Below are positions 6,185 to 40,359 of a stretch of DNA of 47,421 nucleotides, in pieces. The notes below the pieces were generated by a model. The model did not search any database, was not told where the DNA came from, and saw only the letters and a program-made list of their open reading frames with translations. The DNA is from an uncultured archaeon (GTDB lineage: Archaea > Nanohalarchaeota > Nanosalinia > Nanosalinales > Nanoanaerosalinaceae): contig CAZWHR010000001.1 of NCBI GenBank assembly GCA_964633675.1, forward strand, positions 1 through 47,421, given 5' to 3'. The first letter of the stretch is position 1, and the number at the start of each line of letters is the position of its first letter. A program made the position numbers and the translations under genes.

Positions 6185-6634
6185 ATGAAGCTCTCAAGCC
6201 CAGAATTTGATGATAACGGTCGCATACCTGAAAAATATGGATATACACATCAGAATATAAACCCAACTCTCCTTTTAGAAGAGATTCCTTCTGAGGCAGA
6301 ATCTCTTGCGCTGGTAATGGACGATCCGGATGCCGTGGAACCTGCCGGCAAGGTCTGGGATCACTGGGTTATATGGAATATATCTCCGAAGGTATCACGG
6401 ATAGAGGAGGACTCCACTCCTTCAAGTGCTGTAGAAGGAGAGAACGACTACGGAGAGACTGGCTATGGCGGGCCTAATCCTCCAGACGGCGAACATACCT
6501 ATGTTTTCAAGCTGTATGCTCTTGACCAAGAGCTGGATCTACCAGCAGGATCTAAAAAGGAGGATGTTGAAAAGGTTATGGAGGGACATATTATAGCAGA
6601 GGCGAGACTTGAAGGTAAGTATTCACCTGTCTAG
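6185..6634 (+). CDS. PEBP / YbhB-YbcL family (Raf kinase inhibitor-like) protein
   Basis: Motifs DDPDA...WDHWVIWNI and GYGGPNPPDGEHTYVFKLYALD. Confidence 0.85.
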   Translation: MKLSSPEFDDNGRIPEKYGYTHQNINPTLLLEEIPSEAESLALVMDDPDAVEPAGKVWDHWVIWNISPKVSRIEEDSTPSSAVEGENDYGETGYGGPNPPDGEHTYVFKLYALDQELDLPAGSKKEDVEKVMEGHIIAEARLEGKYSPV

Positions 6635-6673
6635 ATGGCCACACTGTTTGAAGCTTTAGAGTGTTGATCATTT

Positions 6674-9600
6674 ATGGAAACATCAACAAGAAGCTACAGG
6701 TCTAATGTAGTAACTTCTTTAATAGCTCTAGCTCTATTCTTAGCTCTGAGCTCGACTCTAGTACTTTCCGCTCCGTTGGATTCTGATTCGGGCGATAATG
6801 AGTGGAACATGCTTCAGAGGCATGTAAACCATTCGGGGTACACCAACTCAAGCTCTCCTGCGAATATAGTTACCTCTTTCCTTGACTCAAATGATGTTGA
6901 TGCTTTGTCGGGTATGGCTGTAAACAGGGATTTTGTATATTTTGGAGGGGTTAACAACAGCATGGGTCTTTCCCGCAGTCTTTACCAGTTAAATGCTTCC
7001 GATATACATCAGAGTATAGCTGAGTTCAATAAGTCTGGGCCTATAAGCTCTACACCTGCGCTTACAGATGACTATGTGTATGTCGGTTCCAACGACACCA
7101 AAGTTTACCAGCTGAATGCCTCAAATGTTTCGAAGGAAATTGCTAACTTCTCTACAGAGGGAGGTATCTCTGCGTCTCCAGCGGTTTCCAACGGAAATGT
7201 CTATATAGGCAGTACCGATAACAAGCTTTATCAGTTGAATGCTTCGAATGTGTCCGACAACATCACCGACTTCGAGGCAGGAGATAACATAAATTCCTCG
7301 GCTGCAGTAGGGAACGGCTTTGTCTATGTTGGTAGCACCGATAAAAGGCTTTACCAGCTGAACGCATCAAACGTCTCTATAGAGATTTCCAATTTTTCTA
7401 CCAATGGACCGATTCTTTCCTCTCCCACGATTACCGATGAGTACGTGTATGTAGGTAGTGATGATAACACTATATACCAGTTGAATGCTTCGAATGTTTC
7501 TGAAAATATCTCTAGCTTCGAGACCGGTGGAAGGGTCAGAGGAGAGCTTGCTATATACAATGGATACCTATATGTTGGTAGCAACGATGGTAGCGTATAC
7601 CAGCTGAATGCCTCCAATATATCGAATGAGATAGCTAACTTTACTACCTTATCGCTGGCGAATGTAACAGCTCCTCCTGTGATAGCTGGTGATGACGTCT
7701 ATGTTGGGGCGGAGAACGATACGGATGCCCGCATATATCAGCTAAGTGCTTCCAATATCTCCAATATGAGGAGTGAGATGAGGAACTTTTCCACAAACCG
7801 TACGTCTCTTAATTCCCTTAAACCTCTGGCAGTTTCTCATGGAGTCCTGTATATGGGAGATGAGACTTCTCTGTACCGAGTTGGGAACTATAACATCACA
7901 GGGAAGTCAGCTACACTGGAGTTTAATGATTCTTTGGACTATTCATCCAGCAATTCAACGATAGTCACAGGTGATGTGGATGGCGATAACGTCACCGAGA
8001 CGGTTGCGGGCACTTCGAAGGGGATAATGGTTGTAAGCTATAACGGTAGTTCCCTGGCGGTAGAGGCAAATCACAGCCTAGGGCTTAATTGTTCGGACTG
8101 TCTAGGCATATCTACAGAGCCTCTTCTAGCTGATATCGATAGAGACGGGGATATAGAGATAGTTGCAGGAGCTTATGACGACAACACTACCTATGTGTTC
8201 CGACATAATGGTTCTGGCATAACTGAGGAGGCAAGCCTCCAGCTCGATGGAAGGATATACAGTTCTTCTCCAGTTACAGACGATATTGACGATGATAATA
8301 CGTGGGAGATAATTATGGGAGACGCAGATGACAGCATACACATATTGAACCATGATGGATCCTCACTTTCTGAAGAGGCAAGCTTTAGCATGGGAGGGAT
8401 GCTTGCTGACCCGGTCCTCGCTGATCCTGACGGCGACAACACAACCGAGATAGTTGCGGCCAGCCTGAATAAGAACCTGTATGTCCTTGAATATGACGGT
8501 TCAAGTATATCTGAAGAGGACAGCTTCAACACCACCAATATACTTGAGTTTGAACCTGTAGTGTCCGATGTTGACGATGATAATTCCCAAGAGATAGTGT
8601 TGGACAGGTGGAATGTCTCTATTTTTAACCACAGCGGTAGTCAATTGAGGGAGGAGGGTTTCTTTGACAAGGGTTGCCCTGTTACTACCGGTGTATTGAA
8701 CCCACGATGTATGAAACAGAACGGTTCCAGCCTTGCGACCGCTGATTTTGACGGTGATAATGATACCGAAATTTTCACGGGCGGATCAACCGAGGTACAC
8801 CTACTTCGCCATAACGGTTCGGATATAAGGGAGGTGGACAGCATGTCGGTGGAGAACCCCGTTATGAGCGAGCCCTTGGTGGTTGATGTAGATGGAGATA
8901 ATATAACCGAGGCGGTTTTCAAGGATCAGGAAGGTATCATGTACGTCTTCAGCAAGAGTTCCCCTATCCAGATGGAGCACAGGAACGATCTTGAGAGGAG
9001 TGGCACTATAAGGGCAATAGATGAGGGAACAGTGGTTGATAGAAGCTCTGGTGGCGGCCTTGAATTCGGGGCCTTTTCCTTGTATTATTACATAAAGCAC
9101 CTACCTACCATGGTGGCGATTATATTGATGTCTATAACCGTACTTGCATGTCTCACTCTCGTTCTTTCGATGTTCCTGCCCAAGAGGTTCCACAGGTTTG
9201 CCAGTCTGAGGGTTTTGAGGTATGGCTCGGTTACTGTTCTCTTTGTCTCTCTGGCAGGTGTGGGTGTCTATGCCGCCAGCAGTATAGGTTCAAGCGCCAT
9301 ATCAGACTACAGCGATGCAGCGGCCTGCGGAGATATTACTGGTAGCGGCAGTTTTGCACTGGTGGCTACTAACGGTGAGAGGATAAACCTGAAGACCGAA
9401 CCTGCCCCGATTCCCGGGGATTGTGGGGATGTGGTTCCTATACCTCCTGGCGACGGTAATGGAGGTAACGGAAATACGGGTAACCCTAATCAGGGCCAAC
9501 AGGGTAATGGAGGAGTCACAACTGGCGGGGGAATATCGGCTAAATCTGCCGTTGTTTCCGGGGAGATATTCCGTGAGAGACCTCCGCAGTTCCGAGGCCT

Positions 9601-11803
9601 AACTACGCAGACCCTCAAGGTAGAGGTAGCTAATTGCAGACCTGGAAACGAGTACCTGTTTGAGTTCGCTGATCCTCGACATGCAGCTATAACCGATGTT
9701 GAACGAGGTGGAGGAATAAGAGGACTAGGAGGCTGTAAGTTCACTCTTTCACTGATAGCCAGGCCTATAGGGATTCTAGGGCTTCAGGAGATTCAGTTGG
9801 TGGTGTCGGAGAAGCGGGAGGAGTTCGTACAAGAAGTAGATAGGCCTAGTGTCCCTGTAAGAGATAAACCAGGTATATTTAGCATAAGCAGGTCGGGAAC
9901 TATGCCTACGAGAGGTAGGTGGTTCGGTTTCAAGGTGCATGGTTTCATGCCCGAAGATATGGGTCTTAGACTAACTAATGCTGGCGGTCTCCCCATTTCT
10001 GTGGAGGAGGTGGATGCTGAGAGTATCACCAGCGGTGAAAAAACCGAGTTGGGTGAATCCGAGGACTTGATAGAGAAAGCTGTAGAATATATAGACGATT
10101 GGACCAGAAAGGTTTGGTTGCGTATACCTGAAGACTATGGAGGCAGCCAACAGCTAGATCTGGAGCTGATGTCTGAGGACACTCCGATACACAGGTTCAG
10201 ACAGGCTGTCCACGTACCTCAAAACTCCTTCATACAGGCTACATCCATAAGACCTGAGGTTGAGAGGGATAGAGCAGCTATATTTGGATTCGGTAGTGGA
10301 GGTGGTGGAGGAAATTGGATGAAGTTCCTGTTCAACCCGAGTAATCACTGTCTAAATGAGCTCGGTGATGAAGAATGTGCACAACAGTTCAAAGAAAGCC
10401 TTGAAGAGTTTGGGCTGGATGAAAACATAGATATAAGCAGTTCTACTCCAGGCAGCCTAACCATATCATTTGGCGGTACTAGCACCAGAAACTTTCTGAG
10501 TGGCGGTATAGGGGCATGCATATCCGGAGCTAACAGATACATAGGCAAGGTATGCATATATGAAAAAGGGAGGCAAGAGTCGCTGAAGGAAGCTAAAAAG
10601 GAATGCAGGAACTCATTTGACAGCAGGGAGGATCAGAATGAATGTATAGAAGCTGCATCTCAAGCACACGATCTTATATCAAACTGGGGGGCTTTCAGAC
10701 ACTGTGAGGAAGAGGTAAATTCTATTGAGGATGCTTGTAATTGCCTGCCAAAGGAGATGTTTGAGAGATGTAAGAGCAGGCACCCTGGCGAGTTGTCGGT
10801 TGAACTATCAGATATACCGCGGAGTTTCGCAATATCTGACCGAGGCTCTCGACAGGTCGCCTTCAAGCCATCTAACCTGAAGTACATGTTTGCCAGGGAG
10901 AACTCAGAAAAAGGAACTATGGATATAATACTGGCAACTTCGGATAAATCGGTGACTTTCAGAAATGTAGGCATAAACTATGATTCCATATATGCACTGG
11001 ATATAACCCCTGTACCGGATAACTGCAACGCAAACTGCAAGGCCGATGATGACTATACTAGAGGTCAGTGTTCACAGCGGGAACTTGGAGGGGACTGGGT
11101 GAAGAAACCTAGTCTAGGTGACTGCGCAGGAAATAAGGAATGTTATTGTAAGGAAAAGACCTCCAAGACTTCTTCCGCTCCAGCACCGGAAGACGCTACC
11201 GAGACGCTTGTTTCCCTTATAGGTAGGAAGGAATATACGCAGGACTGGCAGGAATATACGGTTTCGACGGAACTCTGTAGATCTTCTCCGGCCAAATGTT
11301 TAACAGGCATATTTGACAGCTTGGGATTGAGTGATAGTGTAAGGATACAGAGATCGAGTGCCCTAGACGCGAAAGTATCGGTAGGCGGTGAGTCCTACAG
11401 TTTCAACCCTTCGAAGCTTGAAACTGTGTTCATGAATAATGATAGAAGCCGTATCATCCTCCTGGCGGATAGATCCGTGTCGATTGACCTGTCCGAGGTT
11501 GCGGTTGGAGAACTCAATATCCCTGAAGATCCATTTGAGACCAGATTGTCCGGTTTCGATATCGGTATTAGGAACAGAGGTGGCAGGGAAGTATCGGTGA
11601 ATGCAGATATGCTGTTCACCCTGAAGTCGGAAGATAGTATAATGAAGTGGATTGTTGAGGACAGATCTAGTCTTCCTTCTGCAGAGGTAGCACCAACATT
11701 TTTGGACAGCATATTCAATGCTGTTGGTAATGGGATTAGGACAGTAGGGAAAAACACTAGGAGAATGTTTGGCAACCTTTTTGACCTAGTCAGCTTTGAT
11801 TGA
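6674..11803 (+). CDS. giant surface protein (1709 aa): signal peptide, PQQ/BamB-like propeller, FG-GAP-like propeller, internal TM hairpin, G/N/Q linker, Cys-rich C-terminal half
   Basis: Uninterrupted 5.1-kb ORF with an ATG start. N-terminal hydrophobic signal VVTSLIALALFLALSSTLVLSAP. Repeat families and TM segments were read directly from the translation (see repeat features). Confidence 0.85.
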   Translation: METSTRSYRSNVVTSLIALALFLALSSTLVLSAPLDSDSGDNEWNMLQRHVNHSGYTNSSSPANIVTSFLDSNDVDALSGMAVNRDFVYFGGVNNSMGLSRSLYQLNASDIHQSIAEFNKSGPISSTPALTDDYVYVGSNDTKVYQLNASNVSKEIANFSTEGGISASPAVSNGNVYIGSTDNKLYQLNASNVSDNITDFEAGDNINSSAAVGNGFVYVGSTDKRLYQLNASNVSIEISNFSTNGPILSSPTITDEYVYVGSDDNTIYQLNASNVSENISSFETGGRVRGELAIYNGYLYVGSNDGSVYQLNASNISNEIANFTTLSLANVTAPPVIAGDDVYVGAENDTDARIYQLSASNISNMRSEMRNFSTNRTSLNSLKPLAVSHGVLYMGDETSLYRVGNYNITGKSATLEFNDSLDYSSSNSTIVTGDVDGDNVTETVAGTSKGIMVVSYNGSSLAVEANHSLGLNCSDCLGISTEPLLADIDRDGDIEIVAGAYDDNTTYVFRHNGSGITEEASLQLDGRIYSSSPVTDDIDDDNTWEIIMGDADDSIHILNHDGSSLSEEASFSMGGMLADPVLADPDGDNTTEIVAASLNKNLYVLEYDGSSISEEDSFNTTNILEFEPVVSDVDDDNSQEIVLDRWNVSIFNHSGSQLREEGFFDKGCPVTTGVLNPRCMKQNGSSLATADFDGDNDTEIFTGGSTEVHLLRHNGSDIREVDSMSVENPVMSEPLVVDVDGDNITEAVFKDQEGIMYVFSKSSPIQMEHRNDLERSGTIRAIDEGTVVDRSSGGGLEFGAFSLYYYIKHLPTMVAIILMSITVLACLTLVLSMFLPKRFHRFASLRVLRYGSVTVLFVSLAGVGVYAASSIGSSAISDYSDAAACGDITGSGSFALVATNGERINLKTEPAPIPGDCGDVVPIPPGDGNGGNGNTGNPNQGQQGNGGVTTGGGISAKSAVVSGEIFRERPPQFRGLTTQTLKVEVANCRPGNEYLFEFADPRHAAITDVERGGGIRGLGGCKFTLSLIARPIGILGLQEIQLVVSEKREEFVQEVDRPSVPVRDKPGIFSISRSGTMPTRGRWFGFKVHGFMPEDMGLRLTNAGGLPISVEEVDAESITSGEKTELGESEDLIEKAVEYIDDWTRKVWLRIPEDYGGSQQLDLELMSEDTPIHRFRQAVHVPQNSFIQATSIRPEVERDRAAIFGFGSGGGGGNWMKFLFNPSNHCLNELGDEECAQQFKESLEEFGLDENIDISSSTPGSLTISFGGTSTRNFLSGGIGACISGANRYIGKVCIYEKGRQESLKEAKKECRNSFDSREDQNECIEAASQAHDLISNWGAFRHCEEEVNSIEDACNCLPKEMFERCKSRHPGELSVELSDIPRSFAISDRGSRQVAFKPSNLKYMFARENSEKGTMDIILATSDKSVTFRNVGINYDSIYALDITPVPDNCNANCKADDDYTRGQCSQRELGGDWVKKPSLGDCAGNKECYCKEKTSKTSSAPAPEDATETLVSLIGRKEYTQDWQEYTVSTELCRSSPAKCLTGIFDSLGLSDSVRIQRSSALDAKVSVGGESYSFNPSKLETVFMNNDRSRIILLADRSVSIDLSEVAVGELNIPEDPFETRLSGFDIGIRNRGGREVSVNADMLFTLKSEDSIMKWIVEDRSSLPSAEVAPTFLDSIFNAVGNGIRTVGKNTRRMFGNLFDLVSFD
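6929..7879 (+). repeat. about 8 tandem PQQ/BamB-like beta-propeller blades, each with Y-V-G-S-x-D-x-x-x-Y-Q-L-N-A-S-N-[VI]-S
   Basis: The YQL motif falls at aa 104, 145, 186, 227, 268 and 309, an exact 41-aa (123-nt) period, then at 355 and (YRV) 400. The repeat is visible at DNA level as taccagctgaatgc-tc-aatgt. Confidence 0.8.
7961..8944 (+). repeat. 7 FG-GAP/VCBS-like blades (integrin-alpha-type propeller)
   Basis: Seven D-x-D-x-D-N-x-x-E loops: DVDGDNVTE, DIDRDGDIE, DIDDDNTWE, DPDGDNTTE, DVDDDNSQE, DFDGDNDTE, DVDGDNITE. Each is followed by I-V/F-x-G and an H/Y-N/D-G-S-x-[IL]-x-E-E segment. Spacing is 47-59 aa. Confidence 0.7.
9104..9289 (+). other. internal transmembrane hairpin inside the 1709-aa protein
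   Basis: TM1 is TMVAIILMSITVLACLTLVLSMFL, the basic loop is PKRFHRFASLRVLR, and TM2 is YGSVTVLFVSLAGVGVYAASSIG. A PPGDGNGGNGNTGNPNQGQQGNGG linker follows. Confidence 0.6.
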
Positions 11804-11823
11804 TAGGAGGTGTGAAAGAAAAA

Positions 11824-12993
11824 ATGAAAAGAAAGATTAAGGCGCTGACGGTGATGTTGCTGATAGCATTGGCTATGCCGACAGTTTTTGCGCAGGAGGA
11901 TGCTAATGCTAGCAAAAGCGCCACTGTAGGCGCTGGAGATGAGGAAAGGCTTCATTTTGAAGTTCCGGACGAGTTCCAAGACAAGGAAAGCTTTAGGACT
12001 GTATTGAGACTGGAGAGTGGCAGGTCCATACTAGTAGAGAAATCACCTCCCCTGACCGATAGGACCTGGATAGGGCAGTTCGTGAAGATAGGAGGTCCTG
12101 ACAGCAACAGGGTTGTTGACCCCAATACACGCGTAATCTATCAGGTGGTTCCCAACGAGCAAAAGATAGCTATAGGCGTAGTGAAAGGATCTCTGGATGA
12201 ATCTCACTTCTATATAACCATTCCCTCTCTCTCCGCAAATGCGTATCCGAAACCGGTACAGGACGAGTCTCCCATTGTAGTCTCTCCAAAGAGATGTGAC
12301 AGTGTGCTGGTCACCCGTCCGGTAGAAGAAGGAGAGGTATTCAGATACCTCTCAGGCTTCCCTTGTAGAGTGCTTTCCGCCAGGGGAGGAGTTCCTGATA
12401 GAACTGTTTCCGCTCTACTTGGTGAGAAGGTGGAGCTAGGCCAATTAGAGGAGGGCGAGGTGGTGCAGTTAGATTTCCAGAACAGCAAAAACCTTAGGAA
12501 CGTCAAGATAACAGCTGGAGGCAGTGTGGAGGATGGCGCTATAACTATGAACCAGGTAGATGAAGAGGAATTAGATAGGGAGAATATAGGAGATGTAAAT
12601 GAGGAGGTTGTCTCGTACTTGAGAGCTGATCTCGAAAATATAGAGGATTCGGATATAAGGAACGCATACTTCACCTTTTCGGTTGACAAGGATAAAGTGG
12701 ATGCTTCAGCTGAGGGGGAGGTTGTCATGATGAGATATCGCGATGAATGGCGCGAATATACTGCTAGGCGGATAGGGGAGACTGACGACAAGTACCTGTT
12801 CCTAGCAAGCACTCCCGGAATGTCATACCTAGCTATAGCGGTAAAAGAGGTAGATACAGATGTGTCCGATTTTAAGGTGGGAATAATTACATTGCTTGTT
12901 TTTGCAACGGTGCTGGTAGTTGGAGGTGTGTGCTGGGCTCGTCGAAAGAAGGAAAAACGTAGAGATGATAGAGGTGGTGAGGATGCAGCATAG
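11824..12993 (+). CDS. secreted protein (389 aa) with C-terminal PGF-pre-PGF-like module, TM anchor and basic tail
   Basis: GGAGGTG at 11806-11812 and ATG at 11824. The track start at 11800 is a TTG overlapping the upstream stop. Signal peptide MKRKIKALTVMLLIALAMPTVFAQ. The C-terminus is ...LASTPGMSYLAIAVKE...ITLLVFATVLVVGGVCWARRKKEKRR. Confidence 0.75.
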   Translation: MKRKIKALTVMLLIALAMPTVFAQEDANASKSATVGAGDEERLHFEVPDEFQDKESFRTVLRLESGRSILVEKSPPLTDRTWIGQFVKIGGPDSNRVVDPNTRVIYQVVPNEQKIAIGVVKGSLDESHFYITIPSLSANAYPKPVQDESPIVVSPKRCDSVLVTRPVEEGEVFRYLSGFPCRVLSARGGVPDRTVSALLGEKVELGQLEEGEVVQLDFQNSKNLRNVKITAGGSVEDGAITMNQVDEEELDRENIGDVNEEVVSYLRADLENIEDSDIRNAYFTFSVDKDKVDASAEGEVVMMRYRDEWREYTARRIGETDDKYLFLASTPGMSYLAIAVKEVDTDVSDFKVGIITLLVFATVLVVGGVCWARRKKEKRRDDRGGEDAA

Positions 12994-15900
12994 TTTTAGG
13001 GAACCGATGGATAGTTCTGAAGCTTTAACCAGACTATGGAAAGCGGTTGCTATTTTACTGCTAGTTTTATCATTCACAGCTATATCTGCGTCTGCACCCG
13101 CTAATCTTGACAACCCCGCCATTGATGAAGCAGTAAACGTAACACCTCCTGTAGAACTTTCTGTGAGATATTCACACCCTAGAATAACTAACAACAATAT
13201 TATATTCTTTAGAATATGGGATAACAACACTTATAGCCGTATAGGTTCCTGTAGAGTTAAATCCGGTTCTCGATGTGGGGTAAACTGGACAAATCTAAAG
13301 CCTGGCTCTAGTTACAGGTACAAGGCAATGGTAAGAGTGGGTAGGAATCTATCTCGGAGCGAGACCTGGAGATTCACGACTAAGCCTACCCCGCCTCCAG
13401 AAAGCCTTAACTGCCAGTGTGTTACAAGCGGAAGTCATGAGACGGGGGAGGTGAGCTTTGATTTCAGCTGTGGCAGAGATCCTGATCGTGTAAAACTTAT
13501 AGGAGGTGAGGGAGGATGGAAGGATCCTAGTAGCTTCTTGCCATATTCTGTTGATGTAGAGAAACATAATGCAAGCATGAACGAGACTATAAGGTCTGAG
13601 TTCATGCTACAGAGGCGTAATGGTAGTAGAGTAGTTGGAATAGATAGAAAGACCTGTAGTGCGGAGTTAAGACATCCTAAAGAGAGTTCTGATACCAATA
13701 TTTCTGGCCCTGATTATCCTGATAGGGATACTCCGGACTGGGCTTTGTGCAAGAATCCCGAAAAATGCCTTATAGTGAATGGCACCGAGAAGTCCCTGCA
13801 CGGCATCCAGAACTACAAGAAGGTGCTGGTCATAAACGGTGGTGTCCTCCATGTAACGGATTACCGAGAGGGGGGTGGGAAACTGGTTCTTGCCTCTGAC
13901 AGCATATATGTTGATTCTAAATCCAGGATAGATGCTGAAGGACGTGGACTTCCCGGGGGTGAGAGCCCTATATGTTACCCTGATCGTGACAAGCCTAAGA
14001 TAGGAAGAAACGGTACAGGTATATCTGAAGGGGAGGGTGGTGGAGGAGCAAGTGGGAAGACTCATACCCCTGTAGAACGGAAGCGTTCCGATGTAGGTGC
14101 TGGCGGAGGTGGCGGTGGTCATGCGGCCAGAGGTGTGCATGGGGATCCTTCCCACAACCAGAACTTATGTGCAGGCGGACTACGTGATGCTTCCTGCTGG
14201 GCTTTTGGCCCCAAGGCCGGTAGAGGGGGGAGACCATACGGATCGAGATACGGTTCAAAGAACTTTCTAGGTTCTGGGGGTGGAGCTGGAGGCTGTGGAG
14301 CCTTAGCGGACATCCCTAATACAAAGTCAGGTCCAGGAGGTAGGGGTGGTGAAGGCGGAGATGGGGGTGGAGCTGTCACCTTGAAAGCAAGAGATGTTAT
14401 TATTGAAGGAGTTATAGATGCCGATGGAGAGGAAGGAGGAGCGGGAGAAGACGGTAGAATGCCTGTAGAATCGTTTGATGAAGATAGATGGGATCCTGTT
14501 AAAGGAACTGCTGGAGGAGGAGGTGGAGGCGGAAGCGGGGGCGGTATAAAGATAATTGGGAAGAAAGTCGATATTCCCGGGTCTCTCACTGCCAAAGGTG
14601 GCGAAGGCGGGAGAGGCGGTAGCGAGAATATTTTCCTAAATTCAACTCCTGAAGACGATAATCGGGAAGTTAGATCATTTGGCCGGAGGATGGAAGGAAG
14701 GTTGCTTCCTTATAGCTTGGTATCTGGTATATCCAATACTAATTCCCGACAGGGTGGGGCGGGTTCAGGAGGACGTATAAAGATATTTTCAGAGCGTACG
14801 ATTCGAGCCGATCACACCCTAGGAAATAAAGAACACCCCTTCTATAAGGGGATAAATAATCCTATTATTGATAGTCTTGGAACTTTAATTGGCTATGAAG
14901 CTATACCTTACAATAGAAAGAGAGGAACATTCTATTCAGATGATATAAAATACAAAGAACCTCAAATAAGTCCTTTTGTGGTTTCAGAATCTGCTCCTGA
15001 CCTGGTGGCGGGTAATAGATCTAGTACCGTATCCGGAGATAAGATATACGACGAAGTAAGGGTTGTGAACGGGAGCACCTTAAGAGTAAGAGATTTTGAG
15101 AAAGGAGACAACACTACCGGCAGACTGAATATAAAAGCAAATACTGTAGTAGTTGACGAAGATTCCCGTATAGTGGCGGATGGATCAGGATATTCTCCAG
15201 GTTCTGGGCCTGGAGCACCGACCTCAAAAAGAGGTAACGGAGGAGCATATGGAGGCCTAGGCTACTTTAATCCTGAAAAGGTTGGTTCCGGAAGAACGTA
15301 TGGTACCCAGTCCCTTATGGAGATTTCAAGAGGCTCAGGTGGAGGCGGCGGTTCTGGAGGAGGAGCCGTAGATATAAGAGCCAGGGAAATAGAGGTGAAG
15401 GGAACCATCTCCTCTAAAGGTAAAAACAGCAGTGACGGAGGCGGATCTGGTGGAGGCGTAATGGTTATAGGGGAGAATGTACGCCTGGATAATGCTTCAG
15501 CTAGAGGAGGGGGTGCAGGAGGCGGTACAGGTCTTAGTATAGGGGATCAGGCTGGTGGCGGTGGGGGAGGCAGAATCAAAGTATTTGCCGAACACCTGTC
15601 AGGTAATCAGCGTTTTTCCGTTTCAGGGGGAGGTTCCGAAATCTTTGAGAGTAAGGGGACTATATGGAAGGAATCTATAGATTATCCGGACGTAAATACC
15701 TCTATACTTGATGATATAGTTCTGACGCCGGGAGCCTCGTTCGATGTCTTTGCACAGGTTAGTGGAGAACCTATACTTGCTAGCAGAGGTGCTGTAGTTC
15801 CTTCTGCATGTAATGTTACGGTTAAGGATAGGGATGGAAATGCTGAAACCTACCGTATGGATATGGATAAGCAGTTTGGGGATAGAGAAGAAGCTCAATG

Positions 15901-16762
15901 TATATACACCGGAGTCTCTGTAGAGGACAATAAGGGCTGGAACATCTCGGACCGGCTGGAGGTTGAAGTCAAGGTCATGTTTGATACAGGAGACCAGTAT
16001 TCCAGGTCGATCCAGTATTCGTTCCCTGTGGAGAACCTTTCGGAGGATACCGAAGTAGGTTATATAAGTGCTCTTGTGAACCTGTCCGGAAGTTCCAAAG
16101 GCATTCCTGCTGGTGTATTTACCATAATAGCTAACACATCTTCATATAATCAGCGCATCTTAGGCAAGGTTAATAGGATTTTCAACACCAAAATTTCCAA
16201 CGGTACAGCCAGCGTTAACATTGGCAATGTCTCTAGAGGCGAACGCATAGATGTAAACTTTGAGTCCAATGTCACCGATTCTGCGCTGGTATCTGTTGAG
16301 TTCACTGCTGAAAACAACATTTCAGACGCAGGATTGGATGTTTCAGAGCTGGATGAGAAGCCTGAGGGTGTGGAACCTCCTAACGAAAGTCTAATCTCAG
16401 ATTACTGGCATGTAATACCTTCTAATATTTCTGAAGAGGATGTAAGAGATGTTGAATTTGTATTTGAGGTCTCAAAGGACAGGGTTGGTAGTATAAAGCA
16501 TCTGGAGGATCGAGCAATACTTCTTAAGAGCAGCGGAGGAGAATGGGTGGCTCTGGATATGTCGATGGTTGCGGAGACTGAGGACAGTTTTGTTATAGAA
16601 GCAAGTTCTTCTAGTTTGTCCTATCTTGCGGTGGCTCTGAAGGAGGATATATCTCAGAATTCTGACTATAGTAGCTTTCTATCGATTAATGCCTTGGTTC
16701 TCGTTATACTAGTTTTTGTTGTCTGCATTATTCTTGGCAGTAGAATATATGGAGGGGATTAA
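12983..16762 (+). CDS. giant secreted glycine-run protein (1259 aa), putative beta-helix, with C-terminal PGF-pre-PGF-like module and TM anchor
   Basis: GAGGTGGTGAGG then ATG at 12983, overlapping the upstream stop (12991-12993). The track start at 12920 is a TTG inside the upstream gene. Signal/anchor WKAVAILLLVLSFTAISASA. The C-terminus is ...SSSSLSYLAVALKED...LSINALVLVILVFVVCIILGSRIYGGD. Confidence 0.8.
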   Translation: MQHSFREPMDSSEALTRLWKAVAILLLVLSFTAISASAPANLDNPAIDEAVNVTPPVELSVRYSHPRITNNNIIFFRIWDNNTYSRIGSCRVKSGSRCGVNWTNLKPGSSYRYKAMVRVGRNLSRSETWRFTTKPTPPPESLNCQCVTSGSHETGEVSFDFSCGRDPDRVKLIGGEGGWKDPSSFLPYSVDVEKHNASMNETIRSEFMLQRRNGSRVVGIDRKTCSAELRHPKESSDTNISGPDYPDRDTPDWALCKNPEKCLIVNGTEKSLHGIQNYKKVLVINGGVLHVTDYREGGGKLVLASDSIYVDSKSRIDAEGRGLPGGESPICYPDRDKPKIGRNGTGISEGEGGGGASGKTHTPVERKRSDVGAGGGGGGHAARGVHGDPSHNQNLCAGGLRDASCWAFGPKAGRGGRPYGSRYGSKNFLGSGGGAGGCGALADIPNTKSGPGGRGGEGGDGGGAVTLKARDVIIEGVIDADGEEGGAGEDGRMPVESFDEDRWDPVKGTAGGGGGGGSGGGIKIIGKKVDIPGSLTAKGGEGGRGGSENIFLNSTPEDDNREVRSFGRRMEGRLLPYSLVSGISNTNSRQGGAGSGGRIKIFSERTIRADHTLGNKEHPFYKGINNPIIDSLGTLIGYEAIPYNRKRGTFYSDDIKYKEPQISPFVVSESAPDLVAGNRSSTVSGDKIYDEVRVVNGSTLRVRDFEKGDNTTGRLNIKANTVVVDEDSRIVADGSGYSPGSGPGAPTSKRGNGGAYGGLGYFNPEKVGSGRTYGTQSLMEISRGSGGGGGSGGGAVDIRAREIEVKGTISSKGKNSSDGGGSGGGVMVIGENVRLDNASARGGGAGGGTGLSIGDQAGGGGGGRIKVFAEHLSGNQRFSVSGGGSEIFESKGTIWKESIDYPDVNTSILDDIVLTPGASFDVFAQVSGEPILASRGAVVPSACNVTVKDRDGNAETYRMDMDKQFGDREEAQCIYTGVSVEDNKGWNISDRLEVEVKVMFDTGDQYSRSIQYSFPVENLSEDTEVGYISALVNLSGSSKGIPAGVFTIIANTSSYNQRILGKVNRIFNTKISNGTASVNIGNVSRGERIDVNFESNVTDSALVSVEFTAENNISDAGLDVSELDEKPEGVEPPNESLISDYWHVIPSNISEEDVRDVEFVFEVSKDRVGSIKHLEDRAILLKSSGGEWVALDMSMVAETEDSFVIEASSSSLSYLAVALKEDISQNSDYSSFLSINALVLVILVFVVCIILGSRIYGGD
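14030..15640 (+). repeat. glycine-run / short beta-strand repeat region
   Basis: Runs of G4-G7 alternate with short hydrophobic strands (AVTLKARDVIIEGVIDADG, GGIKIIGKKVDIPGSLTAKG, GGRIKIFSERTI, GAVDIRAREIEVKGTISSKG, GGVMVIGENVRLDNASARG, GGRIKVFAEHLSG). Two similar lead-in segments are VLVINGGVLHVTDYREGGGKLVLASDSIYVDSKSRIDAEGRG and VRVVNGSTLRVRDFEKGDNTTGRLNIKANTVVVDEDSRIVADGSG. Confidence 0.6.
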
Positions 16763-16831
16763 GCTGATGTTTCTGCGAAAGACCTTCCGGATTAAATAAT
16801 TTAAAGAAAGAGGAAGAACTTCCTGTTAGGG

Positions 16832-17737
16832 ATGGATATCACTATCGTTGGTGGAGCAGGCTTTGTAGGTTCAAATCTTGCAGACATCTTGAAAGATAAA
16901 GAAGACGTGTCTGTTACAGTGGCAGATCTGAACCCGAAAAATCCGGCTAAACCAATTTCTGAAGATGTAGAACGCCAAAATATGGATGTAACTGACTCCT
17001 CAACTATCAATTTTGAAGGTGCGGATGTTGTGGTGCATCTGGTTGCTCTGACACCTCTTAACAGCTCCGAAAGAGCACACCAGAAGGTTCATGTCGAAGG
17101 AACTGCTAATATAGTTGAAGCTGCTGAGGAAAAAGATGTTGAGCGCTTTATACATATGAGCGCCTTGGGTGCGGATCCTGAAGGCCAAACCTCATATATA
17201 AGGGCAAAAGGACAGGCTGAAAGATATGTGAGAGAGTCAAACCTTGATTACGCCATCTTTCGCCCTTCTGTAATCTTTGGTCGGGGGGACGAGCTTGTAT
17301 CAGGGATGATGGAGGCTGTCGGAATGTCTAGGTTTGTGCCTATACCTTCCCAGGTGCCTGAACTTCAACCACTGTATGTAAAAGATGTTGCCGAGATGAT
17401 ATCCGATGCGGCAGTCGGCGATATAGAGATGGGTAATATCTTTGAGATAGGAGGCCCGGAACAGATGGATCTTAAGGAGATGTTTGAAAAAGTATACAGC
17501 TCATTTGACGCAAAACCATACTTTCTGTCGATTCCTATGCCTATGGTTTTTGTTTTTCTGGCTTTTCTTGAGCTTATGCCGTTCACTCAGTTTGGTCTGG
17601 ATCAATACAGATTCCTGCGGATGGATAATGTAGTGGATGACAACGATATAAGGGGATTTGGCTTGTATAAGGAGAGCTTAACAACTTTTGAAGAGTTTCT
17701 GGAGATAAGAAAAATATCTAAGGGTGTAAAACAATGA
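16832..17737 (+). CDS. NAD(P)-binding atypical SDR (NDUFA9 / NmrA-like epimerase-dehydratase family)
   Basis: N-terminal Rossmann motif IVGGAGFVGSNL; 301 aa; RPSVIFG segment. Confidence 0.7.
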   Translation: MDITIVGGAGFVGSNLADILKDKEDVSVTVADLNPKNPAKPISEDVERQNMDVTDSSTINFEGADVVVHLVALTPLNSSERAHQKVHVEGTANIVEAAEEKDVERFIHMSALGADPEGQTSYIRAKGQAERYVRESNLDYAIFRPSVIFGRGDELVSGMMEAVGMSRFVPIPSQVPELQPLYVKDVAEMISDAAVGDIEMGNIFEIGGPEQMDLKEMFEKVYSSFDAKPYFLSIPMPMVFVFLAFLELMPFTQFGLDQYRFLRMDNVVDDNDIRGFGLYKESLTTFEEFLEIRKISKGVKQ

Positions 17738-18486
17738 AAGTTGATGTAGATCTTGCGATGGAAGCAGTCAAAAGTGCTGGAAAACTATTAAGAGAGAACT
17801 TTAGAGAAAAATATTCTGTTGAAAGGAAAGAGAAACACGATTTTGTAACTAATCTGGATCTTGAGGCAGAGAACAAGATTCTGGAGATACTGGGCGACAC
17901 TGGCTATTCTATATATGGAGAGGAGACTGGAGAACACCCTGGAGATGATGCTACATGGATTGTCGATCCTCTTGACGGTACAACAAATTACATTCTAGGA
18001 AATCCTGCCTTTGCCTCGGCAGTTGCGCTTGTAAGAGATGGGGAACCAGTGCTATCAGCAGCCTATCTACCGTTTACAGATGACCTTGTAACCGCTGAGA
18101 AGGGTGAAGGCACATACCTAAACGGAGAAGAAATCACTGTATCCAATGTATCAAGCCTTGATAATTCCTTCCTGATATTCTGCCATGGGAAGAAGCCTAA
18201 GGATGCGGAATCCGCAATAGAAGTCTACCAGAAATTCAAGACCCGGTGCAAAGATATGAGGCAGATAGGATCTGCGGTCTTTGAGTTCTTATCTGTAGCT
18301 CTTGGAAAGGCCGAAGCCTTTATATTTCCTGGAGCTCCTAGATACGATGTGGCGCCAGGCTATATCTTCCTCAAGGAGGCGGGAGGAAAGATAACTGATT
18401 TCTCTGGAGGAAAATATTCGTTCGACAGCGCTAATATGCTTGCCTCTAATAGGGAGGTACACAAAGAAATTCTGAAGGATCTTTAG
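17734..18486 (+). CDS. suhB: inositol monophosphatase / archaeal FBPase-IMPase family
   Basis: ATGA overlap with the upstream gene. Motifs EE(T)G...WIVDPLDGTTNY, and a downstream region consistent with the WDxAAG-equivalent. Confidence 0.8.
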   Translation: MKVDVDLAMEAVKSAGKLLRENFREKYSVERKEKHDFVTNLDLEAENKILEILGDTGYSIYGEETGEHPGDDATWIVDPLDGTTNYILGNPAFASAVALVRDGEPVLSAAYLPFTDDLVTAEKGEGTYLNGEEITVSNVSSLDNSFLIFCHGKKPKDAESAIEVYQKFKTRCKDMRQIGSAVFEFLSVALGKAEAFIFPGAPRYDVAPGYIFLKEAGGKITDFSGGKYSFDSANMLASNREVHKEILKDL

Positions 18487-18498
18487 ATACCTAATCGT

Positions 18499-20079
18499 TC
18501 AGTCTACCTGATTGAGGTATTTTTCTATTTCTTTTTTCTCTCTTTTCTGGCTCCATCCGAGAAGCTTCGCCATCAGTGATGAAACTTTCTCCACACAGCA
18601 TCGGCCTCTGCATTTCTCCCATCCAACTGTCCCTCTCCTCAGCATGAAGTCACACACTTTAACTGCTAGTTCTTCCTCTACCGCCAACTTTATCTGCGCC
18701 TTTATATCCTCTGTATGGCTACACAGCTTTTCTCCCATACTTTGACTGTCTTCTGCTATTTCTGCTACTTTCCTGTATCTTGAGCCATAGAGATCTTTCA
18801 AATGCTCTAAAGTCTCTTCAGGGATGTCAAAATCTGCTTTTTCTATTTCTTCTCCTCCGGGAAGCTTCCTTTCCGCGGTAATGCACTCTTCCTTTACACC
18901 CAGCTTCTCCGCTGCCAGGTCTGTAGCCTCCTCTGCTGCGACTCTGTAATTTGTTATCTTTGCTCCTAGCACCGAGATAATGTTTAACTCTTCGTGGTCT
19001 TCGATCTTGTGTTTTCTGGATACATCTGACTCTTTTGCGCTATCTCCAGAATTGTAGAGAGGCCTAACACCTGCATATGTGTAGATGATATCTTTCTCTT
19101 CTATTTCAGGAAAGTAGCGATTCAGCTCTCCTAGAAGATAATCTATGTCATTTTCTGTAGCTTCTGCCAGATCGGGATCCTCTCTGAAGTCGGTATCTGT
19201 AGTCCCAACAAGGGATTTTCCGTTCCACGGCACCACAAAGATTATCCTGCCGTCTTCTGTCGGTAGTAGAACTCCGTTTTCGGTTATTTTTGGGATAACT
19301 AGATGGATGCCTTTAGTTGGTCTAACAAGGTCTCTTTCCTCCATCCCTCCTAAGATCCTAGAGGCCCACGGTCCTGAGGAGTTTATGAAGATCTTACCTT
19401 CTATTTTTACCTTATCTCCGGATAGCTTTTTTTCCACCTCTATAGCTTCTATTCTACCTTCTTCAGTTTTGAAATTCTTAAACTCTGTATGGTTCAGGAT
19501 TTTAGCTCCGTTCTTAACTGCTGAGAGTATGTTCTCAACACAGAGTCTCTCGATGAACTCTGCCTGGCAGTCATAGTAAGTGAAGGCTTCCTGAAGCTCC
19601 TCCATAGGTAGCTCTGGGTCCTCTTCATTAACTTCATTTGGCGAGAGCACCCCATGGTTTGGCAGTTCCTTTCCATAAGAAAGCAGGTCGTAGAGCCACA
19701 GTCCAACTCTTATCTTGGCCCGGTGTAGAAAGCTATCTCCATAGCTAGGTATCAGGAATCTCAGAGGTTCTACAAGGTGTGGCGCGATTTCCCTCAGGAT
19801 GCTTCTCTCCTGCAGACTTTCAAAGACCAGTCCGAAGTCGAACATCTCAAGGTATCTCAGGCCTCCATGGATCAGTCTTGTGGATTTTGAGGTTGTTCCT
19901 GCCCCAAAGTCATCTTTCTCAACAATACAGACATCCATACCTCTGATAGAAGCATCTCTTGCTATCCCGCACCCAACTATACCCCCGCCAATGACCACAA
20001 GGTCATATTCCTTTCCCTCAAACGCCTCTAGATCCCTATCCCTGTTGACCTCTATGCCTTCTCTACCTTTACTTTCCAT
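18499..20079 (-). CDS. glpA: FAD-dependent glycerol-3-phosphate dehydrogenase (GlpA/GlpD type) with Cys-rich BFD-like C-terminus
   Basis: DLVVIGGGIVGCGIARDASIRGMDVCIVEKDDFGAGTTSKSTRLIHGGLRY. The C-terminus has CSHTED...CDFMLRR...CRGRCC. Confidence 0.8.
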   Translation of the reverse strand: MESKGREGIEVNRDRDLEAFEGKEYDLVVIGGGIVGCGIARDASIRGMDVCIVEKDDFGAGTTSKSTRLIHGGLRYLEMFDFGLVFESLQERSILREIAPHLVEPLRFLIPSYGDSFLHRAKIRVGLWLYDLLSYGKELPNHGVLSPNEVNEEDPELPMEELQEAFTYYDCQAEFIERLCVENILSAVKNGAKILNHTEFKNFKTEEGRIEAIEVEKKLSGDKVKIEGKIFINSSGPWASRILGGMEERDLVRPTKGIHLVIPKITENGVLLPTEDGRIIFVVPWNGKSLVGTTDTDFREDPDLAEATENDIDYLLGELNRYFPEIEEKDIIYTYAGVRPLYNSGDSAKESDVSRKHKIEDHEELNIISVLGAKITNYRVAAEEATDLAAEKLGVKEECITAERKLPGGEEIEKADFDIPEETLEHLKDLYGSRYRKVAEIAEDSQSMGEKLCSHTEDIKAQIKLAVEEELAVKVCDFMLRRGTVGWEKCRGRCCVEKVSSLMAKLLGWSQKREKKEIEKYLNQVD

Positions 20080-29010: not shown

Positions 29011-31347
29011 TCAGCAAACCCTGTCAGTCAGAGTGAACCTACCATCATCAAAAGATATCCGGGAGCAACCTCTATCTATCTCTATATCGGTAGCTGAACC
29101 TATATCTGAAGAAGAACCAATCACTCTCTCCATATCTGAGGCGATCTCTCGGTACTGACGTACATCAGAAACGGCCCTTGTAGGCTTCACTACATCGTCC
29201 GCTGCTCTAGCCTTCATATTTGAGAAAGCTCCGGAGGAATCCTCACTTAGACCTGCAGGAGCCCCTCCAAATATTGAGATATCTCTATTAACTTTTCCGG
29301 ATGAGATATTAGCCAAAAAAACCATATCTGTGGTTGTAACATATTGATCGCGAATTTCATTTTTTCCAAGAGCTTTCTTGTAGAACTTGACCTCGTCCAT
29401 ACTTCCATTAAATCCTCTTCCAAGATCTACTGTGTCATCCTCCTGTTTAAGATTGCCTTTTATATCTCCTGTTCCATCTATTTCTCCGTCCAGGAAGATT
29501 GACATGTTAGAGCCTCTACTGTCGTATACCATGGCTACATGATGCCACCCAAGATCTAGAGAGGATAAATCTGTCGAACCTCTTACCACATTGCCTCTTC
29601 CGCTTTCGTTTCTGAATCTTCCTTCAAGCAGTATCCTATTCGAATCCTCCACAATCTCCAGTGAAGGAGTGCTTTCAGGATACTGTACTAGGCCTACATC
29701 TCGAGTATAATCTTGGGCTGTTGCGTTAGCTTTAAACCAGAGGGAGACTGTGAAAGATCCTCCTTTGAGTTCTATTCTTGGAGATTCCTCTATAACAGCA
29801 TAACCCTTCTCAAGGTCTAGACCGAGTTCAAAACGGCCTACATCCCACTTTGATTGGTCCTCCAGTCTTCCATTGAACACACCATCGCTGCTGTTGAATA
29901 TACTGCCTCTACCTCTATCCAGAGGGAACCGGGAAGTGAATCCCTTTGGTTCATCATAGTTCAGGCTGTCACATGGCCCTTTTATCACGTGCGGTCTGAC
30001 AATATCTTCTTCAACAACCACCAGATCGCTACAGTCTTCCCTTAGATCCATCTCTCCAAGGTTGAGGGATAGATTTATAGGGTGGTTAGGTAGGAACTCT
30101 CCTGAATGATCCTCCACAGATACTTTCTTCTTGGTACTCCATCCATCAGATAGCTTAAAGCTTCCTTCTTCTTCCATTCGGGACAAACTTGCCTTCGGGG
30201 GTTCTGTGTGCCTTCTGATGGCTGATCTGCTCACTCCGCCTCTTCCAATTATATAATCTAGATAGGGAACTGTTACCTCTCTACTGGAGGATCCTAGGCC
30301 GAAGGAGAATTCTCCGCCACTAGCTTCTCCTATATATTCGTCCAGTTCAGAATCTATTCCTGTAGTATCCGTAGTCAGGATAAGGCTCTCTCTTCCAGGG
30401 TTCAGCGCTGCTATATAGGGCAGGCTTGTTCCCGATATAGTTCCGGAAAAGGTATCGCCGTTGGCATTTATAGCTTTCTGATCTGTGGTATTGGCCTCCC
30501 AGTGAGTCATCACGTTGGCGTTTGAGGCGTACCAGAGGGGAGTTGATATCGAAAGAGTTACAGGACCTTCTCTTCTTATAAATGGATTAGAATCAAATAG
30601 GCGGAAACTATTCCCTGAATCAAACTCTAGAATCGTGTATATAGGTCCTTCATCCACCTTTGTAATATCGGATCTCTCGATAATCCTTCCCTCGGGAGCA
30701 AGATCCCTCAGACCTTTCCTCCGTGCCTCTACAAAACCTTTACCGCCTTCAGCACTCCCTATCTTCAGTCTCACTAGGCTGTTCTCCAAGACCTTTTTCT
30801 CGGAATCCCACTCTAGATCCGTGTGGTATACAGGTTTCTCAATATCGCTGTTTCCGTAGTAGAGATTGTATCTATCTCCTGCAGTGTAGAGAAACCATAT
30901 CTTCGTATTTTCAGTGTTACAGGTTCCTTCCTCTATTTGGAAGGGGATCTGTCTACCATTTCTCCCGATTCTAAGGTCTTTGCAGTTTTCTCGCATTTTA
31001 CCGTCTTCTATGAGCGCTGAGGTATTAACGGTCATAGAAAGAGGATATTTGTCCAATTTTAGACCTCTAACAGCATCTATCGATATAGCGCGTCTAAATT
31101 TCCATTCCTCGCTGTACCAGAGGCTATCAAAGCTCCGGGCTACGCTTTTAAACTGGGATACAGCCACACTTGAGCTACTCTGATCGTACTCTATGTCTTG
31201 ATAATCATCCAGTATATTCATAGTTATGGAGAGAGACCCGGCTACCAGTACAACGGTTATTATGAAGAACTGCGCCTTCCTATTCCTGCAAATATCCCTG
31301 ATGCCTCTGAATATATTTCGAATGATAGGAATCACTGGAACCACCAC
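29011..31347 (-). CDS. giant pilin-like adhesin candidate (778 aa): class III signal peptide, DUF2341-like domain(s), LamG/ConA-like domain
   Basis: GTG start at 31347, with no ATG before the TM. ...NRKA|QFFIITVVLVAGSLSI. The DUF2341-like segment is WYSEEWKFRRAISI...CKDLRIG...YNLYYGN. The LamG-like segment is FTVSLWFKA...GWHHVAMVYD...SIFLDGE...FNGSMDEVKFYKKAL. Confidence 0.65.
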   Translation of the reverse strand: MVVPVIPIIRNIFRGIRDICRNRKAQFFIITVVLVAGSLSITMNILDDYQDIEYDQSSSSVAVSQFKSVARSFDSLWYSEEWKFRRAISIDAVRGLKLDKYPLSMTVNTSALIEDGKMRENCKDLRIGRNGRQIPFQIEEGTCNTENTKIWFLYTAGDRYNLYYGNSDIEKPVYHTDLEWDSEKKVLENSLVRLKIGSAEGGKGFVEARRKGLRDLAPEGRIIERSDITKVDEGPIYTILEFDSGNSFRLFDSNPFIRREGPVTLSISTPLWYASNANVMTHWEANTTDQKAINANGDTFSGTISGTSLPYIAALNPGRESLILTTDTTGIDSELDEYIGEASGGEFSFGLGSSSREVTVPYLDYIIGRGGVSRSAIRRHTEPPKASLSRMEEEGSFKLSDGWSTKKKVSVEDHSGEFLPNHPINLSLNLGEMDLREDCSDLVVVEEDIVRPHVIKGPCDSLNYDEPKGFTSRFPLDRGRGSIFNSSDGVFNGRLEDQSKWDVGRFELGLDLEKGYAVIEESPRIELKGGSFTVSLWFKANATAQDYTRDVGLVQYPESTPSLEIVEDSNRILLEGRFRNESGRGNVVRGSTDLSSLDLGWHHVAMVYDSRGSNMSIFLDGEIDGTGDIKGNLKQEDDTVDLGRGFNGSMDEVKFYKKALGKNEIRDQYVTTTDMVFLANISSGKVNRDISIFGGAPAGLSEDSSGAFSNMKARAADDVVKPTRAVSDVRQYREIASDMERVIGSSSDIGSATDIEIDRGCSRISFDDGRFTLTDRVC

Positions 31348-33485: not shown

Positions 33486-33502
33486 CTACCCTTTCTCTTT
33501 TC

Positions 33503-34351: not shown

Positions 34352-34357
34352 AGCGGC

Positions 34358-35281: not shown

Positions 35282-35296
35282 AGTGTATCTACCTTG

Positions 35297-38385: not shown

Positions 38386-38389
38386 TAGT

Positions 38390-39037: not shown

Positions 39038-39137
39038 GGGAGATCACATTCCGTATTATAGTTAATGGTAAAGGCTGGTTAAAAAAGATTCCCAATAAAT
39101 AGAGTTTAAGATCAAGAAAATCGCTGTATTTTAGATA

Positions 39138-39659: not shown

Positions 39660-39662
39660 AAA

Positions 39663-40250: not shown

Positions 40251-40359
40251 TCTAATCAACTCCTTGGATTACCTGCATCCACAGTTACCAGTTTATGGAA
40301 GAGCGCTATTTATAAGTTTCCCCGCTGTTGGAACCCTTTCCCCTTTAGAACCATCTCTA

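Follow-up and report, generated by a model that had tools for sequence, protein, structure and literature searches.

The 47,421-nucleotide contig CAZWHR010000001.1 of an uncultured archaeon, referred to here in its full length as the window, carries an open reading frame (ORF) of 1709 codons plus a stop codon that begins with ATG (6674..11803, + strand; taken from the ORF listing) and encodes a putative surface protein with two dissimilar halves. The interpretation put forward here, to which we give somewhat less than an even chance, is that this protein arose when the genes of an anchored propeller adhesin and of a secreted, disulfide-rich protein were fused in frame, and that it is exported in two parts and probably cleaved between them. 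The evidence lies chiefly in the junction of the two halves, in the family membership of the N-terminal half, and in the charge, cysteine and glycosylation-site content of the C-terminal half (amino acids (aa) 873 to 1709). An identical entry, P0001, is present in the protein database searched, where it forms a singleton cluster and derives from an NCBI contig of 47421 bp.

The TldD protein encoded nearby on the contig shares 77% identity with TldD of a metagenome-assembled genome (MAG) of Candidatus Asbonarchaeaceae (Nanohalarchaeota, DPANN archaea), and the flanking sequence is collinear with that MAG in five blocks of 70–80% nucleotide identity. Judged from these comparisons, the source of the contig is a Nanohalarchaeota archaeon akin to the Asbonarchaeaceae, that is, a nanohaloarchaeon and presumably a DPANN symbiont of haloarchaea.

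Hydrophobic segments at the junction

Three hydrophobic peaks were identified in the protein on the Kyte-Doolittle (KD) scale with 19-mers, at aa 12–30 (2.33), aa 813–831 (2.78) and aa 853–871 (1.90), and none was found beyond aa 871, which leaves the protein without a C-terminal transmembrane (TM) anchor. The second peak corresponds to TM1 (aa 813–835, MVAIILMSITVLACLTLVLSMFL; 9110..9178, + strand), a predicted stop-transfer membrane anchor with a Hessa sum of −3.71. TM1 is followed by a basic loop (aa 836–851, PKRFHRFASLRVLRYG; 9179..9226, + strand), spelled P836-KRFHRFASLRVLR-Y850 within the protein, that holds five Arg/Lys and one His in 16 residues and is placed in the cytoplasm by the positive-inside rule. 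The third peak marks TM2 (aa 852–867, SVTVLFVSLAGVGVYA; 9227..9274, + strand), which has a Hessa sum of +1.96 and a hydrophobic core of about 13–16 residues. Its end reads G-V-G-V-Y-A/A-S, with Gly at −4 and −6, Val at −3 and Ala at −1 of a predicted cut after A867; the residues from A868 onward, past this cut, read ASSIGSSAISDYSDAAACGDITGSGSFALVATNGER. No Arg or Lys occurs in the 35 residues after TM2, and that stretch is acidic.

Cleaved signal peptides are characterized by a short h-region, a helix breaker at −4 to −6, and small residues at −3 and −1. A rule-based reading of the junction finds an n-h-c arrangement of this kind after the stop-transfer anchor, in which TM2 supplies the h- and c-regions and the basic loop would double as the n-region. 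Comparison of 19-mer Hessa sums within the contig sets TM1 (−3.71) beside the C-terminal anchors of two neighboring genes (−1.81 and −4.15), and TM2 (+1.96) beside the cleaved-type N-terminal signal peptides of neighbors (+1.88 and +0.76), the protein's own N-terminal signal peptide summing to −1.5. The cleavage motifs of local signal peptides, VFA/QE, ISA/SA and LSA/PL, can likewise be set against the VYA/AS of TM2. Because of its short and weak core, its Gly residues at −4 and −6, its V-Y-A/A-S end and its hydrophobicity in the range of local signal peptides, TM2 looks like an internal cleavable signal peptide and not a stable second anchor. TM1 together with KRFHRF, for its part, reads as an ordinary C-terminal stop-transfer anchor at the place where such proteins end. 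General signal-peptide rules are also given in other work (PMC13385932, PMC5010249). Export of the C-terminal half by the Tat pathway was rejected, as no twin-arginine motif is present in the sequence of the loop.

An initial annotation of this stretch, made from the sequence alone, had proposed two equivalent membrane helices tethering both heads of the protein. Both hydrophobic segments are present, and flank the basic loop KRFHRFASLRVLR as quoted there, but the second is much weaker than the first and has a signal-peptide-like end; the "hairpin" is asymmetric, TM1 being much more hydrophobic than TM2, and the proposed equivalence does not hold. What remains of that model is an uncleaved helical hairpin, with the glycosylated propeller half and the Cys-rich half held side by side as a two-headed surface protein, and this lies on the unlikely side without being far-fetched. 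It makes use of the same charge, cysteine and glycosylation-site depletion evidence as export in two cleaved parts, and the C-terminal TM-loop-TM of the homologous protein P0005 shows that such hairpins occur in the family: P0005 ends in TM-PKFELK-TM, its junction reading SFMPKFELK where that of the present protein reads SMFLPKRFHRF. Against an uncleaved hairpin stand the core length of TM2, its positive Hessa sum, the two Gly residues and the V-x-A at its outer end, which are the very features that set cleaved signal peptides apart from stable anchors.

The N-terminal half and its homologues

The fusion reading takes the N-terminal half to be a protein of a familiar kind. It starts with a Sec-type signal peptide (aa 1–33; 6674..6772, + strand; KD 2.33), for which cleavage at L-S-A/P is predicted by the −3/−1 rule. 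This is followed by an eight-bladed PQQ/BamB-like beta-propeller at about aa 62–412 (6857..7909, + strand), identified by Pfam families PF13360 and PF13570 and by motif copies. The PQQ_2 match (PF13360, clan Beta_propeller) scores 64.2 bits against a gathering cut-off of 27.6, whereas Beta-prop_ACSF4, at 119.3 bits over aa ~110–450, falls under its whole-protein cut-off of 133. A blade motif of the type [LVI]YQLNASN[VI]S was counted in exactly eight copies between aa 103 and 406, spaced 41 aa apart (46 for the last two), giving eight tandem blades of about 40 aa, each of which bears YQLNASN[VI]S with two to three N-glycosylation sequons (N-x-S/T). At the DNA level these blades repeat with a period of 123 nt and are 61–74% identical to each other.

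The second propeller, at about aa 425–790 (7946..9043, + strand), is of the seven-bladed FG-GAP, integrin-alpha-like type. FG-GAP_3 (PF13517) matches aa ~487–710 with 35.2 bits against a gathering cut-off of 26.9, while PF01839, with a score of 19.8, stays under its cut-off of 22.1. Exactly seven DxDxD[GN] loops were counted between aa 434 and 743, and these loops presumably bind Ca2+, as is usual in the family. Integrin alpha and other FG-GAP (VCBS) propellers share the seven repeats with DxDxDG-type loops; however, the present protein lacks an integrin leg domain as well as a beta-subunit partner, and its FG-GAP propeller is fused behind a PQQ propeller. The ORF, the signal peptide and the order of eight PQQ-like and seven FG-GAP blades given in the initial annotation were thus recovered by Pfam, motif counts and the KD profile.

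The best PQQ homologues are DPANN proteins annotated as "PQQ-binding-like beta-propeller" that have the same blade motif and cover 36% of the query or less. Three of the 119 best of these end in multi-pass domains, and a fourth shows one marginal internal segment; for the other homologues, strongly hydrophobic segments are confined to the N-terminus and the last 160 aa. Because of this placement, the N-terminal half up to TM1 appears complete in itself, and in sequence terms it is a typical DPANN adhesin module. The DPANN surface proteins P0002, P0005, P0007, P0013, P0029 and P0032, from Woese-, Nanohalo-, Pace- and Nanoarchaeota, resemble it in having a signal peptide, an eight-bladed sequon-rich propeller of 33–49% identity to that of the present protein, and one TM anchor at the C-terminus, followed by a basic tail, comparable to TM1 and KRFHRF. 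These proteins stop at most 160 aa past the anchor, whereas the present protein runs on for 874 residues, and no DPANN PQQ homologue joins the PQQ propeller with the FG-GAP propeller and the C-terminal half found here. The FG-GAP homologues are distant FG-GAP/VCBS proteins of 300–850 aa with 32% identity or less, none of which covers the TM1-loop-TM2 region. Neither the 119 best PQQ homologues nor the 77 FG-GAP homologues include a protein with an internal anchor and a long TM-free extension behind it, in agreement with the uncommon architecture that had been remarked on initially. To our knowledge, no archaeal surface adhesin of such a layout has been described.

The locus of P0005 (L009 7490-12698, ENA contig k141_1112782) carries a further gene 52 nt downstream; its 327-aa product starts with a signal peptide, ends in an anchor and contains 12 Cys. 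This Cys-rich secreted protein is unrelated to the C-terminal half discussed here and is suggestive only with regard to an origin from separate genes. The P0005 contig also holds many small unannotated ORFs and a resolvase, and may be a mobile element or virus.

Location of the C-terminal half

An extracellular location of the C-terminal half is considered more likely because the loop is basic while the stretch following TM2 is free of positive charge, because the cysteines are even in number and without CxxC, and because sequons are depleted. The distribution of charge, with five Arg/Lys in the loop and none in the 35 residues beyond, matches an N-in/C-out orientation of TM2. Cysteine makes up 2.6% of the C-terminal half, the highest share among the ORFs of the contig. 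The whole protein contains 27 Cys, of which 22 lie in the C-terminal half, four in the propellers and one in TM1; the figure of about 28 initially given for the C-terminal half is too high for aa 873–1709. None of the 22 forms a CxxC motif, the spacings being CX3C to CX12C only, and no metal-cluster motif was found among them. Cysteines come in even numbers in each of the six ectodomains predicted on the contig (4, 22, 2, 14, 6 and 4), against odd numbers in 10 of 17 cytoplasmic ORFs, a pattern that points to cysteines being systematically paired into disulfides in the proteins that this halophile exports.

Most striking is the difference between the two halves in sequons, of which 44 were observed in the N-terminal half against 13.5 expected, and none in the C-terminal half against 5.9 expected (P = 0.0014, for a feature noticed post hoc). 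The 17 cytoplasmic ORFs of the contig are neutral in this respect (31 observed, 25.5 expected), further large surface ORFs show an excess (28 against 9.4 and 15 against 8.4), and no stretch of 837 aa with zero sequons occurs in the concatenated cytoplasmic proteins. Depletion below neutrality suggests selection against glycosylation of the C-terminal half, which would imply that this half meets the oligosaccharyltransferase and hence lies outside the cell. The charge, cysteine and sequon data thus favor the part of the initial annotation that placed both halves outside; its tethering of the C-terminal half is not supported in the same way, since this half may be released.

The opposite arrangement would be a type I topology in which only TM1 spans the membrane, TM2 is not inserted, and the 840-residue C-terminal half is cytoplasmic. 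There is a precedent in the SPEARE proteins of Nanohaloarchaeota, proposed mediators of host interaction (Hamm et al. 2019; PMC6642349), which have a large ectodomain, one TM segment and a big cytoplasmic C-terminal domain (PMC6642349). They are like the present protein in being very large nanohaloarchaeal membrane proteins with an adhesion ectodomain, a TM segment well inside the chain and a large part after it (PMC6642349). The SPEARE domains are different, however, comprising serine-protease, laminin-G and cytoplasmic type III restriction-enzyme domains (PMC6642349), none of which was detected in the present protein by Pfam at E ≤ 0.1, nor in segments of its C-terminal half at E ≤ 5, and the part after TM1 here follows a signal-peptide-like segment and looks extracytoplasmic. 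A cytoplasmic C-terminal half would accord with the marginal hydrophobicity of TM2 on both scales, with the absence of sequons, and with a K+R content of 10.8%, nearer to that of the cytoplasmic ORFs. It is nevertheless judged unlikely. It would leave a cytoplasmic domain that tops the contig in Cys content, with an even count and neither CxxC nor metal-cluster motif, and with fewer sequons than the neutral cytoplasmic level or any cytoplasmic stretch of equal length. Exported multidomain proteins typically have linkers like the Pro-rich and G/N/Q ones here, the stretch past TM2 is acidic and devoid of positive charge, and no cytoplasmic enzyme or nuclease domain emerged from the Pfam searches.

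Sequence and predicted structure of the C-terminal half

The C-terminal half is taken to be coding because it is stop-free over 837 codons, which has a chance probability of ~1e-21 at the stop probability of 0.056 per codon given by this base composition. It begins with an acidic stretch containing the Cys pair C885/C917 and a Pro-rich stretch, followed by the G/N/Q linker at about aa 924–953 (9275..9538, + strand, for the whole of this segment), where the initial annotation had also placed a linker. No secondary structure is predicted by AlphaFold2 (AF2) for aa 868–955, in a low-confidence model. A beta-rich region follows at aa 956–1215 (9539..10318, + strand), defined from low-confidence AF2 secondary structure, with two Cys (C988 and C1021) and an end reading GFGSGGGGG.

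The Cys-rich region proper, aa 1216–1672 (10319..11689, + strand), holds 18 Cys, and both Cys-rich strings quoted in the initial annotation were found in the protein. From its Cys positions and AF2 secondary-structure pattern, this region may comprise up to three helix-plus-beta-meander modules. Two modules, at aa 1385–1445 and 1565–1625, have F[KN]PS[NK]L...IIL[AL].... in common. Alignment of modules B and C showed weak similarity, with z = 4.5 and none of 500 shuffles reaching the score, for segments chosen by eye; the similarity of module A was not significant (z = 0.5 against B and 1.2 against C).

The protein ends in a predicted pair of cationic amphipathic helices (aa 1673–1709, TFLDSIFNAVGNGIRTVGKNTRRMFGNLFDLVSFD; 11690..11800, + strand), recognized by hydrophobic moments and helical in both AF2 models. 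The pair holds 10 of the 12 top helical hydrophobic moments of the protein, 0.64–0.72, compared with a protein mean of 0.19 and a 99th percentile of 0.59. This tail, which had gone without mention in the initial annotation, is basic while the rest of the protein is acidic. As a matter of speculation, it could serve as an in-plane membrane-binding or membrane-active element.

Homologues of the C-terminal half were sought in several ways. A phmmer search of 1.84 billion cluster-representative proteins retrieved only the protein itself. No match was found in Pfam, NCBIfam or PHROGs, and Pfam gave none on four sub-segments even at E ≤ 5; nothing in the PDB sequences fell below E = 0.07; and tblastn against GTDB representative genomes, JGI metagenomes, IMG/VR, phages and plasmids was without a match. 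Nothing meaningful resembling a paralogue on the contig was returned by phmmer --max against all other ORFs and the N-terminal half. A word-index protein search also gave no match, but this search is unreliable alone, as on sub-segments it missed the query's own entry P0001, which the full-length query and the exhaustive search do retrieve. Segment-wise AlphaFold modeling followed by Foldseek, a step suggested in the initial annotation, was carried out for this half: single-sequence AF2 reached a predicted local distance difference test (pLDDT) score of 36.5 for aa 873–1709 and 40.5 for aa 1216–1709, the models being used, with caution, for secondary-structure pattern only, and Foldseek of the low-confidence model against the PDB gave no match at E ≤ 0.001 and template-modeling scores (TM-scores) of 0.12 or less. 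On the strength of these searches the C-terminal half is classed as an ORFan, and the initial remark that it was not recognizable holds across every protein, genome, metagenome and profile search made.

Integrity of the open reading frame

The junction resembles exactly the end of one gene followed by the start of the next, and MFLPKRFHRFASLRVLRYGSVTVLFVSLAGVGVYA/AS would make a perfect pre-sequence beginning at an in-frame ATG. The halves could accordingly be two genes, one for an anchored propeller and one for a secreted Cys-rich protein, that have been joined by a base-calling or assembly error, such as the loss of a stop codon, or the C-terminal half could be made from an internal start such as the ATG at 9170 (aa 833). 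The genes of the contig are tightly packed or overlapping, and the sequence is known from one MAG contig, with a second copy found nowhere. An artefact or mis-annotation of this kind is nonetheless considered very unlikely. The frame is unbroken across TM1, the loop and TM2 and is sensible on both sides, so an indel inside the junction is improbable. No break in GC content, GC content at third codon positions (GC3) or composition is present at 9000-9400, GC3 being 0.47 and 0.45 in the two halves, and neither tandem nor dispersed repeats were found at this junction. Misassembly driven by repeats was rejected, given the lack of a junction repeat and the fact that the blades are only 61–74% identical in DNA.

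No Shine-Dalgarno-like motif precedes the in-frame ATG at 9170 or any other candidate internal start, although most genes of the contig have one, and an internal translation start was rejected as the principal explanation on this ground. Since the ATG at aa 833 is without such a motif, unlike most contig genes, a single polypeptide is favored.

Proposed export, processing and function

In the favored interpretation, the N-terminal Sec signal peptide exports the heavily sequon-decorated PQQ and FG-GAP double propeller, as its sequence and families show, and TM1 with the basic KRFHRF, seen from comparison with homologues to be an ordinary C-terminal anchor, then halts transfer of the propeller half. 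The internal signal peptide would re-open the translocon so that the remaining 840 residues are exported, and, provided that this step occurs, signal peptidase would have rather better than even prospects of cutting after A867. The predicted products are a membrane-anchored glycosylated propeller and a separate protein that is anchor-less, sequon-free and, with its 22 Cys, probably disulfide-rich. The latter may remain bound to the propellers or go free towards the host, and the cationic amphipathic helices at its C-terminus are candidates for binding to membranes. Our best guess for the role of the C-terminal half is contact with the host surface or host membrane, and it is a reasonable inference that a host-contact role fits the symbiont lifestyle of the Nanohalarchaeota and the genomic island on which the gene lies. 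A bolder version of this scheme, in which a two-product "polyprotein" from a variable island supplies an anchored glyco-propeller adhesin and a released, glycan-free and disulfide-rich ORFan effector in a 1:1 ratio, with the tail of the effector engaging the host membrane and the two acting as a self-contained dock-and-strike module, is as a whole distinctly unlikely.

Several points weigh against export in two cleaved parts. At about +2 kcal/mol on the Hessa 2005 scale, TM2 is so weakly hydrophobic that it might fail to insert. The cleavage site after A867 is predicted from the −3/−1 rule only. Zero sequons are equally expected for an unglycosylated cytoplasmic domain, and the P-value attached to them is suggestive, not decisive, resting as it does on a feature noticed after the fact. 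With pLDDT scores as low as those given above, the structural models are useless for deciding the matter. The protein stands alone, on one MAG contig, and its C-terminal half has no homologue, so that the architecture is without evolutionary support and the ORFan half offers no functional handle.

Precursors that are processed by signal peptidase at internal signal peptides include polyproteins of flaviviruses and other viruses and Bradyrhizobium FbcH (cytochrome b/c1). In the present protein, too, a TM anchor leads through a short loop in the cytoplasm to a brief hydrophobic segment bearing a small-x-small site, after which a new exported domain begins; the protein has no sequence relationship with them, however, and its cleavage is only predicted. 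If cleavage does take place, this would be a rare cellular case of polyprotein processing by signal peptidase, of which none is known to us as described in archaea. In the NTB-VPg of tomato ringspot virus, signal peptidase cleaves past a short hydrophobic stretch in the interior of the chain (PMC5010249).

An attached life on host cells is characteristic of Nanohaloarchaeota and other DPANN archaea. Little is known of the molecules by which they attach to hosts and manipulate them, and the prime candidates are large surface proteins that evolve fast. What appears to be new here, as judged from sequence, is a DPANN propeller adhesin extended by an ORFan second exported part, the propeller half being of an already known kind. 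The protein illustrates a possible way in which such surface proteins are built up, in that a standard anchored propeller adhesin has apparently captured a downstream secreted protein through fusion in frame, the export signal of which was kept as an internal element for re-export and probably also for cleavage. Having 44 sequons in one half and none in the other, the polypeptide would also be well suited as a natural test of how selected exported domains stay unglycosylated in archaea.

Genomic context

The gene is the first of three surface-protein genes, all with signal peptides, that form a 10.2-kb variable island (6635..16831, no strand assigned) between the PEBP and epimerase genes, delimited by blastn and tblastx synteny against the closest related genome, L001 (JAXINT010000124.1, Ca. 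Asbonarchaeaceae). In L001 the PEBP and epimerase genes are separated by 27 bp (2815-2841) and the island is absent; the syntenic blocks on either side pair window positions 6185-6627 with L001 3284-2842 and window positions 16832-18450 with L001 2814-1200. Origin of the island from a mobile element was rejected, as neither an integrase nor direct repeats of ≥7 nt at its flanks were found, and GC and GC3 are within the range of the contig.

The second island gene (11824..12993, + strand) is spaced 21 nt from the stop codon of the first and preceded by a strong Shine-Dalgarno motif, GGAGGTG; it encodes a 389-aa secreted protein with a PGF-pre-PGF domain (TIGR04213 in NCBIfam, 41.4 bits) and a C-terminal TM anchor. 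The third (13007..16762, + strand) encodes a 1251-aa Gly-rich and sequon-rich surface protein that also has a PGF-pre-PGF domain (TIGR04213, 33.4 bits) and a C-terminal TM anchor (Hessa sum −4.15), with 28 sequons against 9.4 expected and 14 Cys. Long Gly runs (GGGGGG, GGAGGG) occur in repeated blocks of this protein, and no Pfam domain was found in it. Unlike both downstream products, the propeller protein has no match to TIGR04213 in NCBIfam.

Elsewhere in the window, where RNA and tRNA genes were not found, a gene for a FAD-dependent glycerol-3-phosphate dehydrogenase/oxidase (DAO and DAO_C; 18499-20079, − strand) likewise has no counterpart in the syntenic part of L001, where its place would be between the genes for inositol monophosphatase and FMN reductase. 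A type IV pilus-like locus at 29011-41445 (− strand) is a candidate host-contact apparatus. It includes two large secreted ORFs that overlap by 16 nt, one of 778 aa with Laminin_G_3 and one of 717 aa, together with pilin-like ORFs of DUF7287 and DUF7289, two T2SSF (PilC-like) genes and a T2SSE/PilB3_C ATPase.

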